Shown here: one piece after another, positions 6,494 to 22,901 of the stretch
Layout of the letters: every line of letters starts with the position of its first letter
How positions within the stretch are numbered: the stretch's first letter is position 1
From: a virus
Length of the DNA stretch: 28,245 nt
Reading direction: 5' to 3' (one strand)
Virus genome (UHGV): UHGV-0133447
Translations under genes and position numbers: made by a program
The notes under the pieces: model-generated
What the model saw: the letters and a program-made list of their open reading frames with translations, nothing else
The model's database searches: none
Told to the model about the DNA's origin: nothing

Positions 6494-6495
6494 GG

Positions 6496-6522
6496 CCAAA
6501 GAAAAAGCCCACCGAAGTGGGC
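6496..6522 (-). terminator. Rho-independent terminator (minus strand), back-to-back with the plus-strand one
   Basis: Minus-strand reading is GCCCAC-TTCG-GTGGGC followed by TTTTTCTTT. Confidence 0.7.
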
Positions 6523-6549
6523 CTTACAGCTATCATCATTTTTTATTAG

Positions 6550-6662
6550 GTGTGGTGCCGGGTGCCTCCCGGTAAGTCGCCGCCAGTCCACAGACGACTC
6601 GCAATGCGCAAAAAAACATATCAGACTGGCAATGCCCCTCCGCATAGGGGGATTCACCACAC
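6550..6662. ncRNA. Cloverleaf-like multi-stem element of unknown function (strand undetermined)
   Basis: Outer stem GTGTGGTG (6550-6557) with CACCACAC (6655-6662). It encloses three nested hairpins: CCGGG-TGCCT-CCCGG, GCCAGTC...GACTGGC and CCCCT-CCGCAT-AGGGG. The ORFs on the track here look spurious. Confidence 0.35.
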
Positions 6663-6744
6663 GGATAATTTAGGATGTAGTCATAGGCGGCGTCAATAAC
6701 TGACACTCTGTCAAAGGCATCATTACGATGCCTTTTGCACAGTG

Positions 6745-7954: not shown

Positions 7955-8010
7955 GCCTACTCCTGGTATGGGTCCTGTGCTTAAATAACGCCGAGCGTGG
8001 CGCAGATACG

Positions 8011-8033
8011 AAAAAGGCCCGCGAATGCGAGCC
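8011..8033 (-). terminator. Rho-independent terminator (minus strand) ending the MTase-tRNA-ncRNA segment
   Basis: Minus-strand reading is GGCTCGC-ATTC-GCGGGCC followed by TTTTTCG. Confidence 0.65.
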
Positions 8034-8505
8034 TGATGGATCCGCTTACTGATACGGAGCGACCAACCTAAGTTGTCGCAGATTCAAATTGTGGCCCTGC
8101 CTTTAAGTCACTTTGCGCGCAGCTGGGACATGTAGTTTTCGCATCGTGATCGGGATTCGCTTCAGACGCTGGCCCCGCAGCCATTTAAGTGCCGGTTACG
8201 TTTATCCGGCGGCTTTCGCCCGGTTAAGCCCTAAGGTAAGGGATTTGGTTGTGACACCAGGCCGTTACGCCTGCTTACTTCCTGCCGCTCTGTTTTGGTA
8301 TTGGCCGCCAGTAACTGCGACTCAGCCGATTTACAGGTCTTTGCGTCGGCCGGCGCTGCAGCCCACTTGAGCACATCACAACGGAAAGAGCGCTTAGTGC
8401 ATTTAAGCCAAACCCCATGTAGGAAGCACTCTTACCTGTTGTGCGCTCCGTTTCGTGGAGCAGACGCCGCCGGAATCGCACCGGCAGAATCATCACATTG
8501 GTATA
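8034..8505 (-). ncRNA. Untranslated structured RNA downstream of tRNA-Thr, containing a paralog of the early-left RNA module
   Basis: No credible ORF; the track ORFs overlap each other and the tRNA. Contains a T-arm/acceptor-like fragment (8456-8485), a roughly 20-bp imperfect stem (8425-8445 with 8374-8394), the sense 21-nt motif AGCGCTCTTTCCGTTGTGATG and a closed module at 8248-8382. Confidence 0.45.
8374..8394 (-). repeat. 21-nt boxA-like motif, late-operon copy (AGCGCTCTTTCCGTTGTGATG on the minus strand)
   Basis: 18 of 21 positions identical to the copy at 21904-21924 (plus strand). Both copies are in the sense orientation of their own operon. Confidence 0.6.
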
Positions 8506-8581
8506 TGGTGCTGGTTGACGGAATCGAACCGCCGACATCCTGCTTACAAGGCAGGCGCTCTACCAGCTGAGCTAAACCAGC
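8506..8581 (-). tRNA. tRNA-Thr (anticodon UGU), CCA encoded
   Basis: The reverse complement folds as a canonical cloverleaf: GCTGGTT/AACCAGC acceptor, GCTC-AGCTGGTA-GAGC D arm, CCTGC-CTTGTAA-GCAGG anticodon arm, GGCGG-TTCGATT-CCGTC T arm, and ACCA 3' end. Confidence 0.93.
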
Positions 8582-20105: not shown

Positions 20106-20780
20106 ATGAAAACAATCCAGGAAATCAGGCGGTTAAACGCCAGAAAATTGCGTGATGGTGTTGGCGGTAATATTTACTTCGCCAATATGATTGATCGCGA
20201 GCCTACTCAAACCAGCCGGTTCATGGGAGATGGCGCCACTAAAAACATCGGCGATGCAATGGCAAGGCACATTGAAAAGTGTTTTGACTTACCTACTGGG
20301 TGGTTAGATCAGGAACATCAAACCACTAATGTTGCTAAAACGCCCGATGTCTCTGATACAAATAGAAATATCACCATGGTTCCGGTTATATCCTGGGTAC
20401 AAGCAGGAGCATGGACCGAAGTTGGCTATGCTGAGGTTGATTTGAATAGCACTGAAAACTATCCATGCCCTGTGCCTTGTGGGCCGATGACTTATATTCT
20501 TCGTGTTATTGGCGACTCAATGATCGACGAATATAGGCCCGGTGATATGATTTTTGTTGATCCCGAAGTTCCAGCAGTGCATGGAGATGATGTGATCGCC
20601 TTAATGCACGCTTCTGGTGAGACTACATTTAAACGGTTGATTGAAGATGCAGGACAACGCTATCTAAAAGCACTTAACTCAAATTGGCCAGAACCTTACA
20701 TCAAAATCAATGGTAATTGCTCTATCATTGGCACCGTAATTTTTTCCGGTAAACCAAGACGATACCGAACGAAAACATAA
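20106..20780 (+). CDS. cI: CI-type prophage repressor (HTH plus S24 LexA-like peptidase domain)
   Basis: 224 aa with an N-terminal HTH. VPVISWVQAGAW, GDSM and a C-terminal K-containing S24 fold pattern. Divergent from cro. Confidence 0.93.
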   Translation: MKTIQEIRRLNARKLRDGVGGNIYFANMIDREPTQTSRFMGDGATKNIGDAMARHIEKCFDLPTGWLDQEHQTTNVAKTPDVSDTNRNITMVPVISWVQAGAWTEVGYAEVDLNSTENYPCPVPCGPMTYILRVIGDSMIDEYRPGDMIFVDPEVPAVHGDDVIALMHASGETTFKRLIEDAGQRYLKALNSNWPEPYIKINGNCSIIGTVIFSGKPRRYRTKT

Positions 20781-20791
20781 CAAAGACTATT

Positions 20792-20818
20792 AAACCTGCT
20801 TCGGCGGGTTTTTTTACA
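20792..20818 (+). terminator. Rho-independent terminator after cI
   Basis: AACCTGC-TTCG-GCGGGTT followed by T-run 20809-20816. Confidence 0.8.
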
Positions 20819-20819
20819 C

Positions 20820-20862
20820 TTGACAATGTACCTCAACGGTACATAATGTACCTAAAAGAAAC
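20820..20862 (+). promoter_or_regulatory. PL-type early-left promoter with OL operator
   Basis: TTGACA 20820-25, a 16-17-nt spacer and CATAAT/ATAATG 20842-48. The spacer is itself the operator GTACCTCAACGGTAC (20828-42), the same consensus as OR. A half-site GTACC is at 20848-52. Confidence 0.7.
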
Positions 20863-20953
20863 AGCGAACAGGCAGGACGCCCACGAAGTAGCCGCCCGGG
20901 GCATATGAAGTCCGGGATGATTCGCTGACAGATAAACCAAATAGGAACAGATC

Positions 20954-21187
20954 ATGGCAAGCAAAGGCATTGAAAACCTTATCAAGGACGCATTGGCAAA
21001 CGGCTGTCATGTAGTCCGTAAAGCGCATCGCTTCGAGGTAAGCAAGAAAGGCCAAAAATCAATCACTCTTATTATTTGTGAAGATGGCACAGCTTACCGG
21101 GGAGATATTGACCTAACGATCGCCATAGCCATTCGCACTCAAAAAGAAATGCGCAGAATCCTCGGCCTGCCAGCCAAGGCAAGTTAA
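20954..21187 (+). CDS. Hypothetical 77-aa protein, first ORF of the early-left operon (N position, but no arginine-rich motif)
   Basis: ORF with an AGGAA RBS. No family recognised confidently. Confidence 0.6.
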   Translation: MASKGIENLIKDALANGCHVVRKAHRFEVSKKGQKSITLIICEDGTAYRGDIDLTIAIAIRTQKEMRRILGLPAKAS

Positions 21188-21629
21188 TTACCACAGGTGT
21201 CTTCGGGAGGGGTTGCGGAGCTGGATTGACCACCAGCAACAGAAACTCACCCGACATACAGCAGCCGTTTAGCCCACGGCGTCGGGGGTCCAGTAGACCT
21301 GGATTAATACTGTAGGGGTTGTGCCGGTTGGTCGCCGGCGCCCCGCCCGAAGATTCCTGATCGAACATGGCGAAAGCCGACAGCGTTGAAGGCGATTTTC
21401 TCGGTTTGCGCGCTAAACAATAGCGGGGGTGAAATCGGGGCGGAGAAGCAGAATCCGCGATGTCGGGACTTGATACTTCCGGCCAGACCAACAAGCCGAA
21501 TGATCGCGTAACGGTCCTTTGCATCTGCCCCGGCGAGGTGGCGCCGCCGGACCGGGGCAGATGAATCGTACACAACATGAAAGCGCATTCCATCTTCATC
21601 CGTCGTGGGGACTGGTTTGTAACTGAAGG

Positions 21630-21650
21630 AGTGCGCTTCCAGTTGTGAAC
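21630..21650 (+). repeat. 21-nt boxA-like motif, degenerate copy 0 (AGTGCGCTTCCAGTTGTGAAC)
   Basis: 14 of 19 core positions match copy 1. Lies 274 nt upstream of copy 1. Confidence 0.4.
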
Positions 21651-21903
21651 GGCAATATTCACGACCGTTGTATGGCACATGCAGCGTTAGCAGCCCGGAT
21701 GGTTCCCTTGAAGTTCCATGCGCTATCCGGACAACTGGAATGTGCAAGCCAAGTGTTTCAGGCACGACGTGCGCCCCACCAGCGCGGCGAAAAGGTGTGA
21801 CCCCCGGGAAGAGTCCGGGACACAACAGGAAAGAGTACTGAAGATGCCAGGAAACGCCCTACCGCCAGGCAGATAGACGGGTTATCCCGCAAGGGGTGGC
21901 GGC

Positions 21904-21924
21904 AGTGCTCTTACCGTTGTGGTG
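21904..21924 (+). repeat. 21-nt boxA-like motif, copy 1 (AGTGCTCTTACCGTTGTGGTG)
   Basis: Contains TGCTCTTA (compare lambda nut boxA CGCTCTTA and rrn boxA TGCTCTTTAACAA), followed by GT-rich GTTGTGGTG, which is also the 5' acceptor-like strand of module 1. Confidence 0.6.
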
Positions 21925-22042
21925 TAGCTCAAATGGATAGAGCGCCCCTTATGTGGGGAGTTGAGCACTAACCAATGTTCGCAACACAGGTTATCTCATG
22001 CGGCCGGCCGGACGTTATGCGGGTTCAAATCCCGTCACCACA
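21918..22042 (+). ncRNA. tRNA-like module 1 (canonical acceptor, D arm and T arm; non-canonical anticodon region with a 60-nt insertion)
   Basis: TGTGGTG (21918-24) pairs with CACCACA (22036-42). The D arm is TA-GCTC-AAATGGATA-GAGC and the T arm GCGGG-TTCAAAT-CCCGT (22019-35). The anticodon position has only CCCC-TTATGT-GGGG (a 6-nt loop) plus extra hairpins. No 3' CCA. Confidence 0.5.
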
Positions 22043-22081
22043 GCGCACAACGATGAGGGCATTGACGAGCAAGGCACAGAG

Positions 22082-22162
22082 TCTGGTTCGATTCCAGACG
22101 CCAGGATAGCTCTATATCTGGTGATGGGCAGGGAAAAGGTCCGTTCGATTCGGACACCGGCA
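22082..22162 (+). ncRNA. Two T-arm/acceptor-like minihelix fragments and a truncated tRNA-like unit
   Basis: TCTGG-TTCGATT-CCAGA (22082-98) and GTCCG-TTCGATT-CGGAC (22139-55) both have canonical T-loops. A D-arm-like TAGCTC lies at 22107-12. No complete cloverleaf can be drawn. Confidence 0.45.
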
Positions 22163-22182
22163 GTGCTCTCTTCGTTGTGGTA
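22162..22182 (+). repeat. 21-nt boxA-like motif, copy 2 (AGTGCTCTCTTCGTTGTGGTA)
   Basis: Shares GGCAGTGCTCT...CGTTGTGGT with copy 1. GTTGTGG (22174-80) pairs with CCACAAC (22287-93) after hairpin GGTGG-AGGCA-CCACC. Confidence 0.55.
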
Positions 22183-22320
22183 ATTGCGGCTATGCGCACG
22201 TGACGAGCCAACCCGTTCATGGAATGCGTTTCCGGGCAGTGTACGTCGCCGGTTATGGCTTAACCCGGCAGGTGGAGGCACCACCGCCACAACCTAGTTA
22301 ACTGTGCTGTGTGTAGTCTT

Positions 22321-22390
22321 GGCGGTTATCCAGTTTTCCACTATCCAAAGGAGGAAGAGGATAACGTTCTGATGGATAACCGCCCTTTTT
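22321..22390 (+). terminator. Long-loop hairpin plus T-tract (terminator/attenuator-like) inside the untranslated region
   Basis: GGCGGTTATCCA (22321-32) pairs with TGGATAACCGCC (22373-84), followed by CTTTTT (22385-90). The 40-nt loop contains AAGGAGGAAGAGGA and the ATG at 22372. Confidence 0.4.
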
Positions 22391-22533
22391 ACACAATACA
22401 AAAGAGCATCACCGGGCGACGGGCTCATTACCCAATCCACCCGGGCGGCGTCCTAACCGCAGGTGCTCTTCTGTGTTGTGTACGGAGAAATTCCCGGCGG
22501 TGGCAGCCGCCTTTCGAGAGGGTAAAACCATGA
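22372..22533 (+). CDS. Possible 53-aa leader ORF (uncertain), stop overlapping the next gene start (ATGA)
   Basis: MDNRPFYTIQKSITGRRAHYPIHPGG... with GAGGA about 10 nt upstream. It lies entirely over strongly paired RNA, so coding is doubtful. Confidence 0.25.
   Translation: MDNRPFYTIQKSITGRRAHYPIHPGGVLTAGALLCCVRRNSRRWQPPFERVKP
22462..22482 (+). repeat. 21-nt boxA-like motif, copy 3 (GGTGCTCTTCTGTGTTGTGTA), 3' arm of a roughly 21-bp stem
   Basis: Pairs with TACACAATACAAAAGAGCATC (22390-22410), with 18 Watson-Crick pairs, 2 G.U pairs and 1 mismatch. Lies 48 nt upstream of the next gene start. Confidence 0.55.
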
Positions 22534-22901
22534 GTAATGATCGCATGACAGTAGTGCCCGATTTCCTGGGTGAACTGGACGCCGGCGTATTCATGAACAA
22601 GATTGCGGCGGCTCTTAATACCACCGCGCTCGGCGTTCTGAACAACGGCAACAAAGGCAAGGTTGTCCTCACCTTTGATTTTGAGCGTATGGGCAACTCT
22701 GTTGAAGAGAAGCGCGTCAAGATTAAGCACAAGCTGAACTACAGCACCCCAACTCCCCGCGGCAAAGCGTCGGAGGAGGACACCACCGAAACACCAATGT
22801 GGGTTAACAAAGGTGGCAAGCTCACAATCCTGCAGGAGGATCAGGGGCAACTCTTCGGTATCACCGGCGCGGTGGACGGAAAGCTTAAAGCGGCTCAGTG
22901 A
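22530..22901 (+). CDS. Hypothetical early protein (YfdP-like position upstream of YfdQ/YfdR homologs)
   Basis: The ATG at 22530 with a GAGAGGG RBS is preferred over the track start at 22473. 123 aa. Family not recognised with certainty. Confidence 0.7.
   Translation: MSNDRMTVVPDFLGELDAGVFMNKIAAALNTTALGVLNNGNKGKVVLTFDFERMGNSVEEKRVKIKHKLNYSTPTPRGKASEEDTTETPMWVNKGGKLTILQEDQGQLFGITGAVDGKLKAAQ

Follow-up and report, generated by a model that had tools for sequence, protein, structure and literature searches.

Prophage small RNAs related to the array

DicF, STnc100, PasD and sRNA-17 have hitherto been studied as separate small RNA (sRNA) genes. DicF, encoded in E. coli's Qin prophage (dicBF), occurs as a 190-nt species that is RNase III-dependent and a 53-nt species that is RNase E-dependent, without an internal promoter having been found (PMC10448788, citing Faubladier 1990). 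PasD of enteropathogenic E. coli is bound by Hfq and has many mRNA partners by RIL-seq (sequencing of interacting RNAs after their ligation; bioRxiv 10.64898/2026.05.13.724894), and sRNA-17 of E. coli K1 RS218/UTI89 was measured at 193 nt by rapid amplification of cDNA ends and Northern blot, its deletion raising yfdP ~95-fold (PMC7719688). Here we analyzed positions 21188-22529 of the virus genome UHGV-0133447 (28,245 nucleotides; this whole stretch of DNA is referred to as the window), where GTTGTG and CACAAC hexamers delimit an array of structured modules and hairpins. This stretch is likely to be the untranslated front of the early-left operon in a Klebsiella prophage of the SfV/ST64B/mEp460 type, and it probably gives rise to a polycistronic precursor that is cut into stable small RNAs, i.e., an expanded relative of the DicF/STnc100/sRNA-17 prophage sRNA locus. 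The kind of locus is already known from these RNAs; it is the expanded form that was previously unrecognised.

The array is a real feature of the DNA and not an artefact. Matches to GTTGTG/CACAAC number 24 in the window in comparison to 14.0 +/- 3.2 in shuffled sequence (0/100 shuffles reach 24), and nine hexamers on the plus strand strictly alternate between GTTGTG and CACAAC from 21318 to 22480 (1.2 kb). GTTGTG starts at 21318, 21642, 21916, and 22174, and CACAAC at 21571, 22046, and 22288, in agreement with an earlier note on this DNA, and a further GTTGTG starts at 22475; the copy that the note gave as 21820-25 is one base off and starts at 21821. A degenerate CACAAT is found at 22392. The description of the stretch as untranslated, modular and structured is supported by the lack of a family match for any of its open reading frames (ORFs), by non-triplet indels and by covarying hairpins. 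The ORF listing verified that 21188-21997 contains no plus-strand ORF of at least 60 aa, and the high GC content was verified as well (37/60 G+C in 21301-21360; 56.6% GC in the region versus 51.0% in the window). Module variants occur in lengths of 179/180/182/183/184/185 nt and 120/121/122/128/132/135 nt. Among the flanking ORFs, the 77-aa ORF, the yfdP-like gene, CI and a Cro-like gene have Pfam/PHROGs matches, and the ORFs inside 21188-22529, including two overlapping ones on the minus strand, have no Pfam or PHROGs match. The Prokaryotic Genome Annotation Pipeline (PGAP) annotates nothing in the equivalent 780-960-nt gaps of E. coli, and the CI-to-yfdP gaps of E. coli prophages, Stx2a phages, and ST64B, also of 780-960 nt, carry no annotation. 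The two minus-strand ORFs, at 21072-21680 (202 aa) and 21304-21825 (173 aa), are the longest in the stretch, and one or both might be taken to encode proteins. Apart from lacking a family match, they overlap each other, their translations are R/P/G/S-rich as GC-rich non-coding DNA would give, their homologous segments differ by 1-2-nt indels and they cross cassette junctions that are absent in relatives, so that the probability of a coding function is negligible.

The layout of the array is that of E. coli Qin dicBF. Both loci have a repressor gene, a controlled promoter, small ORFs and a long untranslated stretch before the next genes, and the parts follow in the same order: first a CAUAAC...GUUGUG hairpin (AAAGCGCA/UGCGCUU subtype), then a GUUGUGG module, after it an sRNA that ends in a terminator, and last an STnc100-like module. 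In the Qin segment used here (L277, E. coli K-12 NC_000913 1647800-1650300) the order from ydfC to dicB is hairpin, GUUGUGGCAACCCGCG... module (L277:1452-1565), DicF, STnc100-like module and then dicB. The Qin hairpin, CAUAAC-GCG-AAAGCGCAUGG ... CCGUGCGCUU-CCG-GUUGUG (L277:1374-1457), has the subtype and the fold of hairpin H-a of the window. Counting 190 nt back from the DicF 3' end leads to ~L277:1446, and because this 5' end falls ~12 nt from the hairpin base, within the 3' arm, cutting of the Qin hairpin by RNase III is shown by length. The two loci differ in that the window has three modules and a 167-nt element, no recognisable DicF, and yfdP, yfdQ, and yfdR downstream in place of dicB. 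The DicF papers considered here treat the Qin stretch as the precursor of DicF and do not describe it in terms of arrayed hairpins and tRNA-shaped modules. We note that the '190-nt DicF precursor' holds the GUUGUGG module, and that this module and the STnc100-like module between dicF and dicB are both unannotated in RefSeq.

For sRNA-17, the 193-nt sequence was rebuilt from the supplementary alignment of PMC7719688. It begins at the first G of GTTGTG (GTTGTGGTGAATGCGC; GUUGUGGUGAAUGCG), its module ends in CACCACAAC, and it stops at the U-run of a DicF-like terminator. Since the 3' arm of the upstream hairpin consensus contains no promoter-like hexamer, and no promoter-like site was found in the window array, we took its 5' end to be a processing product. 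By sequence comparison, module D together with the terminator (22174-22389) appears to be the counterpart of sRNA-17: it lies directly upstream of the last hairpin and yfdP, starts with GUUGUGG and ends in a U-run, and in the mEp460 homolog the last module and a DicF-like terminator likewise precede the final hairpin and yfdP. The authors define the RNA by BLAST identity along its full length, which was not found here; approximately the first 30 nt, the geometry of the 3' hairpin, and parts of the terminator align. The interior is unrelated, the 3' hairpin is CCGG-AGAUCAGCA-CCGG in sRNA-17 (CCGGG-AGGCA-CCCGG in mEp460) and GGUGG-AGGCA-CCACC in the window, and sRNA-17 was published as a stand-alone ArcA-regulated gene and not as an array unit (PMC7719688).

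STnc100 and PasD, like this unit, are closed by an 8-9-bp helix (GUGUGGUG/CACCACAC); its 5' strand is followed within a few nt by a hairpin, its 3' strand is abutted by a second hairpin of 5 bp whose loop is AGGCA, and a terminator comes last. All of these parts, i.e., the 8-9-bp closing helix, the early hairpin, the AGGCA-loop hairpin of 5 bp and the terminator, are present in 22174-22389. The GGUGG-AGGCA-CCACC hairpin of module D compared with CCGGG-AGGCA-CCCGG of the STnc100 model is a fully compensated stem with an identical loop. STnc100 and PasD differ in being single genes of the late region (Q / stx / lysis), not early-promoter arrays. On the STnc100 model the mEp460 sRNA-17 locus scores 36.3 bits (E=1.8e-4) and a module of ST64B 35.1 bits, both sub-threshold; the Qin module that follows dicF (L277:1647-1787) reaches 34.1 bits (E=1e-5). 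With DicF the window shares the stretch UUGGCGGU(A/U)AUC(C)AGUUUU ... (A/G)CCGCCCUUUUU as well as position and form, namely an RNA that ends in a terminator, belongs to a prophage operon under repressor control, and has a GUUGUG module and an RNase III-type hairpin before it. An Rfam search of 20800-22600 at permissive thresholds gave only a tRNA match and chance-level matches to mir-1246 and DicF. Module D and the terminator stay below the model thresholds, and their kinship rests on shared ends, position and architecture. The earlier note recognised no named RNA family here; our comparison revealed that the chassis is that of Rfam STnc100/PasD and sRNA-17, the terminator is DicF-like, and the layout is that of Qin. 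Two further RNAs were considered and set aside: svsR (PMC12803456) belongs to a different locus, the 3' end of cI, and HnrS (PMC13502914) to another one among the late genes.

Table 1. Positions of the array parts and of associated features in the window
Feature	Position	Strand	Description
CI-type repressor gene	20106-20780		S24/HTH (helix-turn-helix); Peptidase_S24, phrog_4; own terminator after it
Predicted early-left (PL-type) promoter	20820-20847	+	TTGACA-16-CATAAT, sigma-70-type, 11/12 positions; overlaps GTACC...GGTAC operator-like repeats
65-nt leader	20861-20925	+	Predicted 5' end of transcript; outer stem GCGAA/TTCGC, inner hairpin CCCGG...CCGGG; fixed 5' anchor of the array, upstream of 21188-22529
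77-aa ORF	20954-21187	+	phrog_12911, E=1e-36; cargo gene between leader and RNA array
Multi-helix RNA element, 150-167 nt	21193-21359	+	Closed by the invariant stem UCUUCGGG-A-GGGG / CCCC-G-CCCGAAGA
Unclassified 210-nt segment	21360-21570	+	Ends in a hairpin with 21-bp arms, 21522-21563 (inverted repeat)
Hairpin H-a	21571-21647	+	CACAAC-AUG-AAAGCGCAUUCC ... GGAGUGCGCUU-CCA-GUUGUG; -32.3 kcal/mol, z -4.6
Module B	21642-21826	+	24-nt 'empty' mini-hairpin GUUGUGAA...UUCACGAC (21642-21665); module from ~21666
Hairpin H-b	21821-21921	+	CACAAC-AGG-AAAGAGUACUG ... CAGUGCUCUU-ACC-GUUGUG; -40.5 kcal/mol, z -3.65
Module C, tRNA-like RNA	21916-22051	+	Acceptor stem 21918-24/22036-42, D arm, T arm CGGGUUCAAAUCCCG
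Hairpin H-c	22046-22179	+	-57.2 kcal/mol, z -4.9
Module D, cloverleaf-like	22174-22293	+	P1 GUUGUGG(U)/(G)CCACAAC; z -3.5
DicF-like 3' part	22294-22389	+	Single-stranded ..UGCUGUGUGUAGUCUU, long hairpin GGCGGUUAUCCA.../...UGGAUAACCGCC, CUUUUU; intrinsic terminator, z -3.0
Final hairpin H-d	22390-22482	+	UACACAAU-ACAAAAGAGCAUCACC ... GCAGGUGCUCUUCUGU-GUUGUGUA; -44.8 kcal/mol, z -6.7
5' untranslated region of yfdP-like gene (phrog_204)	22483-22529	+	Small hairpin CGGCGGUGGCAGCCGCC, GAGGG ribosome-binding site; ATG 22530
STnc100 member	6494-6691	-	RF02076, 100.7 bits (gathering 47); chassis and own terminator; late region
Late-region mini-array	8248-8581	-	tRNA-Thr(TGT) 8581-8506; T-arm remnant and CACAAC 8443-8438; hairpin; module GUUGUGA...UCACAAC 8382-8248

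Inter-module hairpins, tRNA-like modules and proposed processing

The best-supported helices of the array are the hairpins between the modules, which were missed by the reader of the earlier note. Each CACAAC is followed by nnG-AAAGnGCA and each GTTGTG is preceded by UGCnCUU-nCn, and these arms are joined into hairpins of ~20 bp. All four window hairpins share a 6 + 2 + 10-11-bp shape, with z scores ranging between -3.65 and -6.7. Copies carry matched arm variants, such as AAGGGCA/UGCCCUU, AAGCGCA/UGCGCUU, GAGAACACUGG/CCAGUGUUCUC, and GGCCUACUCACUC/GAGUGAGUAGACC. When the hexamers were excluded, cognate arms paired with -20.1 kcal/mol in comparison to -13.7 for non-cognate arms and -12.4 for the two flanks of one module (n=44, P ~1e-13). 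Because cognate arms pair best, the co-evolving helix lies between modules and does not extend the module-closing helix; an extension of the closing helix into the flanks is ruled out by the -12.4 versus -13.7 kcal/mol. Pair counts were not taken from the MAFFT alignment of the hairpin arms, which mixes bulged and unbulged registers. H-a, H-b, H-c, and H-d all form the near-continuous helix of about two turns (~20 bp) on which RNase III acts, and are putative RNase III sites by analogy with the homologous Qin hairpin, the one for which cleavage is shown, by length. H-d is the only hairpin present in every array, including the shortest (minimal) loci. H-c is ~81% identical in Stx2a phages, and its loop contains two T-arm-like hairpins (22082-22098 and 22139-22155) that resemble tRNA remnants.

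The modules have a common chassis, in which GUUGUG(GUG)/(CAC)CACAAC forms the acceptor-like helix, a D-arm-like hairpin comes after the 5' strand, and a T-arm-like one abuts the 3' strand, with an interior at the position of the anticodon arm that is variable cargo. The closing helix consists of the hexamers and one to four extra pairs, and measures 8-9 bp in 71/101 distinct modules. A hairpin of at least 4 bp abuts the 3' strand in 70% of the 101 modules versus 19% at random interior positions, and a hairpin 1-4 nt after the 5' strand of the closing helix is likewise found in 70%. The earlier note had pointed out that the seventh closing pair is G:C in module D and A:T in a late-operon paralog, and this compensatory change was borne out across the family: position 7 is paired in 18/28 module types versus 10.6 expected (0/2000 shuffles).

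The hairpins that had been listed at 21522-63, CCCGG-GAAGAGT-CCGGG, and GGTGG-AGGCA-CCACC are all present, and the division into units had to be redrawn. A first unit closed by 21318/21571 is rejected because the GTTGTG at 21318 is unconserved, reading GTTGTA, GTTGCC, and GGCCGC in homologs, and is part of the separate 167-nt element at 21193-21359. For the second unit (21642/21821) the hexamers are in place, and its true start is a 24-nt mini-hairpin, with the module from ~21666. This module B ends in the hairpin CCCGG-GAAGAGU-CCGGG abutting ACACAAC; its 11 variants of 179-185 nt show compensating changes in the inner hairpins, and copies 87.5% identical are found in other Klebsiella phages. 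For the third unit, what had been offered as an alternative register, 21918-24/22036-42, is the helix that closes a tRNA-like unit, and the CACAAC at 22046 is left over.

This third unit, module C, supports the description of the units as tRNA-like. Positions 21918-22043 score 40.0 bits on the Rfam tRNA model RF00005 (gathering 29; E=1.6e-6 to 2.5e-5) with a 68-nt insert, the acceptor, D and T arms aligning to the model. In the fold it has a 4-bp anticodon-like stem with a 6-nt loop, an extra arm of ~55 nt, and two extra hairpins. No encoded CCA follows the acceptor stem (CACCACAG-CGCACAAC). ARAGORN, run on the window, left module C uncalled and called only the tRNA-Thr at 8506-8581. Owing to this rejection, the 68-nt insert and the non-canonical anticodon arm, module C was filed as tRNA-like and not as a tRNA gene. 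Module D comprises a D-arm-like hairpin, a long arm whose tip varies, one further hairpin, and the T-arm-like GGUGG-AGGCA-CCACC abutting P1; its consensus is cloverleaf-like, with 29 pairs of which 5 are changed on both sides.

The 5' part of the array is made up of two other pieces. The 167-nt element folds with a minimum free energy of -79.2 kcal/mol (z -3.3) and is matched by 31 related array segments. In an alignment of 12 sequences, 97.1% of the cells pair, versus 92.5% after shuffling and at most 51% with the partners slid, and nine pairs are changed on both sides versus 4.5 expected (0/500 shuffles). A search of 21193-21359 against Rfam matched no family. In most relatives this element is located directly 3' of the leader. 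The segment at 21360-21570 is found only in close relatives.

Based on this anatomy, we propose that release from CI repression would allow one long transcript to be made from the promoter at 20820-20847, with low-level transcription possible also in lysogens. RNase III would then cut the inter-module hairpins, as shown in Qin dicBF, and RNase E and/or RNase P would trim at the base of the acceptor-like helix; trimming by RNase E is shown at DicF, and a role for RNase P is suggested by the tRNA shape. Such trimming would release stable tRNA-shaped RNAs, which would accumulate. The last module would end at the terminator at 22389 and form an RNA of ~215 nt (22174-22389), the putative counterpart of sRNA-17, and the same terminator may gate transcription that continues into yfdP, yfdQ, and yfdR. 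DicF and PasD suggest that the released RNAs would act in trans, most likely as Hfq-associated base-pairing regulators, with their specificity in the cargo and in the single-stranded 3' part.

Several points weigh against this interpretation. All of the processing steps are transferred from E. coli relatives, and the 190-nt size that places the cut in the Qin hairpin was estimated from a gel. Two pairings are open to the hexamers, one within a module and one across a hairpin, and the covariation tests used related sequences, so that their P values overstate independence. Folding is weak for module B (z -1.3) and for the 210-nt segment (z -1.8). The DicF model RF00039 gives 22308-22385 a score of 16.5 bits (E=2.1), below the gathering threshold of 48, in comparison to 76.7 bits for K-12 DicF with the same tool, and the STnc100 model (gathering 47) has no match in 20800-22600 up to E=10. 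The authors of the sRNA-17 study ascribe that RNA to its own ArcA-controlled promoter and not to processing (PMC7719688), and the rise of yfdP after its deletion could stem from the inserted resistance cassette.

Cassette exchange, tRNA genes and variable cargo

We gathered 145 loci from genomes and viral contigs through the yfdP-like protein, 93 of which carry the 65-nt leader. In these 93 loci the stretch that begins with the leader and reaches to the yfdP ATG measures 438 to 1867 nt. It occurs in 86 distinct versions with 0 to ~5 GTTGTG/CACAAC pairs, and this variation in length arises by gain or loss of whole cassettes. Apart from the leader and the yfdP ribosome-binding site, the shortest versions consist of an element of ~150 nt, a single piece that ends in a terminator, and a single CACAAC...GTTGTG hairpin. 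Klebsiella phage Kp4866-6 (L001) is 98-100% identical to the window where aligned and is without exactly 21827-22051 (module C and the hairpin upstream of it), the junction lying in CACAAC; an AT-rich insert bounded at ACACAAC replaces 20926-21569. The same array type is found in Stx2a phages, SfV, ST64B, and Klebsiella phages. Part of the region matches 2870/5426 complete E. coli genomes, and most of the matches listed lack annotation; an array type present in about half of the complete E. coli genomes is unannotated there. As a separate observation, the insert of Kp4866-6 (L001 3066-3693) contains a minus-strand ORF that, judged by its translation, apparently encodes a hydrophobic, moron-like protein. 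In a metagenome-assembled genome of Chania (L023), a module of 331 nt at segment position 379 has an apparent small ORF (ATGAAACCAACAGCACTG...) inside GTTGTG...CACAAC, and therefore cassettes may not always be purely RNA.

The hexamers and hairpin arms may provide short homologies for the exchange of whole cassettes, which would lead to the hypervariable array. It could also be argued that the inverted repeats act mainly as DNA recombination sites, similar to integron attC or to miniature inverted-repeat transposable elements, with RNA structure being secondary. Cassette-precise indels with junctions in CACAAC, the presence of the same modules not only in the early operon but also in the late region and in a lytic-type phage, and the resemblance of the hairpin ends to RYYYAAC...GTTRRRY are in line with this. 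However, ACACAAC and GTTGTGG each miss the attC consensus at one or two positions, the observed crossover is at CACAAC rather than, in this orientation, at the G|TT of the 3' box, and no integron integrase was found among the ORFs scanned near the array, the whole window not having been annotated. Moreover, the arms covary so that pairing is kept, not a protein-binding sequence, every copy is oriented with transcription, and the Qin hairpin is an RNase III substrate at the RNA level. Sites that work mainly in DNA are therefore very improbable.

Real tRNA genes fill equivalent slots in relatives. They start at GT|TGTGG and score 52.8 bits in L053 and 68.6 bits in L163, and there are cases of tRNA-Arg and tRNA-Asn as well. 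ARAGORN, when run on the 86 array versions, called tRNA genes in two only, L053 and L055. The tRNA in the module slot of L053, a Phytobacter prophage (~1187-1260), is called tRNA-Ile with the unusual anticodon AAT. In the unrelated Klebsiella phage LASTA the same array type is located after the lysis genes, in the order of a relative of module B, a hairpin, a tRNA-like module, a hairpin, module D (a copy 93.5% identical), a tRNA-Arg(tct) 3 nt further on, a hairpin, and a DicF-like terminator.

These tRNAs raise the question of whether the array is a decaying tRNA cluster, a filler between promoter and yfdP that has no function of its own. The T-arm-like hairpins at 22082-98 and 22139-55, the tRNA-like module that ARAGORN rejects, and the variation in content between close relatives would fit such decay. 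Nevertheless, compensating changes are seen in hairpins and modules alike, both are conserved between genera and between unrelated phage types, the match to part of the region in 2870/5426 complete E. coli genomes speaks in the same direction, and members of this kind are expressed as discrete RNAs (PMC7719688, PMC10448788). We consider decay quite improbable in comparison to a precursor of functional sRNAs.

We scanned viral contigs for GTGCTCTTNNNGTTGTGG, which gave at least 120 matches. Among the 120 matches listed, yfdP is located downstream in 7 and tRNA genes lie within 1.2 kb on the same strand in 14. The modules following GTGCTCTTNNNGTTGTGG form ~37 clusters among these matches, and the commonest design among them is a constant GTTGTGGTGAATGCGCAGGCTGATGCGC, 40-150 nt of unrelated sequence, and AAGCCGGAGATCAGCACCGGCCACCACAAC. 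Constant ends with unrelated interiors point to a fixed chassis with hypervariable cargo. In three viral contigs, L209 (4600-4646), L226 (1953-1999), and L256, the module carries as its cargo a copy, in sense orientation, of helix 11 of 16S rRNA, in which UA-to-AU swaps keep the pairing; the Rfam small-subunit rRNA models match the cargo of L209 and L226 at model positions 237-283 (E=1.8e-5 and 8.5e-7). All three modules are of the sRNA-17 type, that of L256 in a different chassis variant. Separately, a sub-threshold hammerhead type I match (28.7 bits versus 34, E=0.005) at L200:384-430, ~130 nt upstream of a hairpin/module junction, may be due to chance.

The helix 11 cargo keeps a decoy or mimic function alive for the family, and does not establish mimicry at the window locus. 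Modules acting as tRNA or rRNA mimics could serve, soon after induction, as decoys or substrates that divert defence nucleases, or could sequester RNA-binding proteins of the host. The tRNA shape of the modules, the real tRNAs in equivalent slots, the location of the array in the first transcript made after derepression and the helix 11 cargo on the same chassis in other phages are in favor of this idea. Nonetheless, the cargo of the window modules has no match in an E. coli rrn operon, module C with its 6-nt anticodon-like loop and without CCA is a poor copy of any particular tRNA, and the studied relatives DicF, PasD (with its Hfq RIL-seq targets), and sRNA-17 have been described as base-pairing or regulatory sRNAs. 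A decoy role for the window array is unlikely, and regulatory sRNAs remain the reading that we prefer.

Processing signals in the shape of a tRNA are found in other settings. The tRNA cluster of phage T4 includes stable non-tRNA RNAs, species 1 and 2, and an engineered 'tRNA scaffold' is used to express recombinant RNA. In organelles there are tRNA-like 't-elements' (PMC1920247) and tRNA punctuation. All of these are alike in that a tRNA-shaped fold acts as a signal for the processing or stability of a non-decoding RNA. The array differs from them in being a distinct conserved family with invariant hexamers and covarying RNase III-type hairpins, located in a repressor-controlled operon of a temperate phage, and its processing by RNase P is inferred. 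It is possible, and we suggest it tentatively, that temperate and some lytic phages of enterobacteria have a natural 'tRNA scaffold' of their own, in which a fixed chassis of acceptor, D-like and T-like parts with invariant GUUGUG/CACAAC ends is a plug-in carrier that stabilises and correctly excises hypervariable RNA cargo, in recombining arrays with real tRNAs and RNase III hairpins. The modules of the DicF locus, STnc100, PasD, and sRNA-17 would all be members, and at least some cargos (16S helix 11 in L209, L226, and L256) would be mimics of host RNA, so that part of the system would act through decoys or protein sponges and not through base-pairing regulators. Such a system would be a natural precedent for the engineered scaffold. 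If one tRNA-derived chassis with one processing grammar holds true, pipelines could find hundreds of new phage sRNAs by chassis and not by sequence, the 190-nt 'DicF precursor' would contain a second conserved RNA that merits study, and the variable interiors could be read as a catalogue of the things in their hosts that prophages target or imitate, a ribosomal RNA helix among them.

Promoter, leader and late region

The earlier note had placed the array directly behind the CI-controlled early-left promoter, and a sigma-70-type site is indeed found there, after the S24/HTH CI-type gene. A promoter scan across 20700-22700 identified this site as the sole promoter-like one, with none inside the array. 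The 65-nt leader starts at the predicted transcript start and is 85-100% identical in the 93 loci and in 45 phage records, including cases with another repressor and promoter (e.g. L001). Its inner stem covaries, with the variants CCCGG/CCGGG, CCGGT/ACCGG, CCCCA/TGGGG, CCGAT/ATCGG, CCCGA/TCGGG, and CCCGT/ACGGG, and the remainder is fixed in sequence. We regard the leader as a candidate cis-acting element, e.g. a put-like antiterminator, that is better placed for antitermination than the array. HK022 put RNA shares the position close to the early promoter, and the leader is likewise structured and highly conserved; a comparison of the leader with the HK022 putL / PL-nun region gave chance-level matches of 7-8 nt and no clear similarity.

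This bears on the proposal, made in the earlier note, that the array itself is a cis-acting leader for processive antitermination which replaces the N protein. No N-like gene is present between the promoter and yfdP, and the intrinsic terminator, with a hairpin that spans 22322-22389 followed by a U-run, must be passed to reach yfdP, as would be expected. On the other hand, close relatives differ by gain, loss, and shuffling of the array, which has 0 to ~5 modules, and protein genes take the place of parts of it in phages whose downstream operon is the same. What does not vary is the 65-nt leader upstream of the array, and even this has no clear similarity to HK022 putL. An antitermination role of the array is consequently rated as very unlikely, at about the lowest level among the RNA-based alternatives, and a precursor of small RNAs is retained as the likely function.

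In related phages the slot of the 77-aa ORF has other content or is empty, with a different insert in Kp4866-6. In the late region, the minus-strand paralog GTTGTGA...TCACAAC was confirmed at 8382-8248. The hairpin of the mini-array is covarying, and more structured sequence lies beyond the module on the minus strand (8000-8581), with a terminator near 8010-8040. In ST64B (L003), the minus strand at 245-433, upstream of the immunity region, matches C4 antisense RNA with 79.7 bits and isrK with 64.3 bits.

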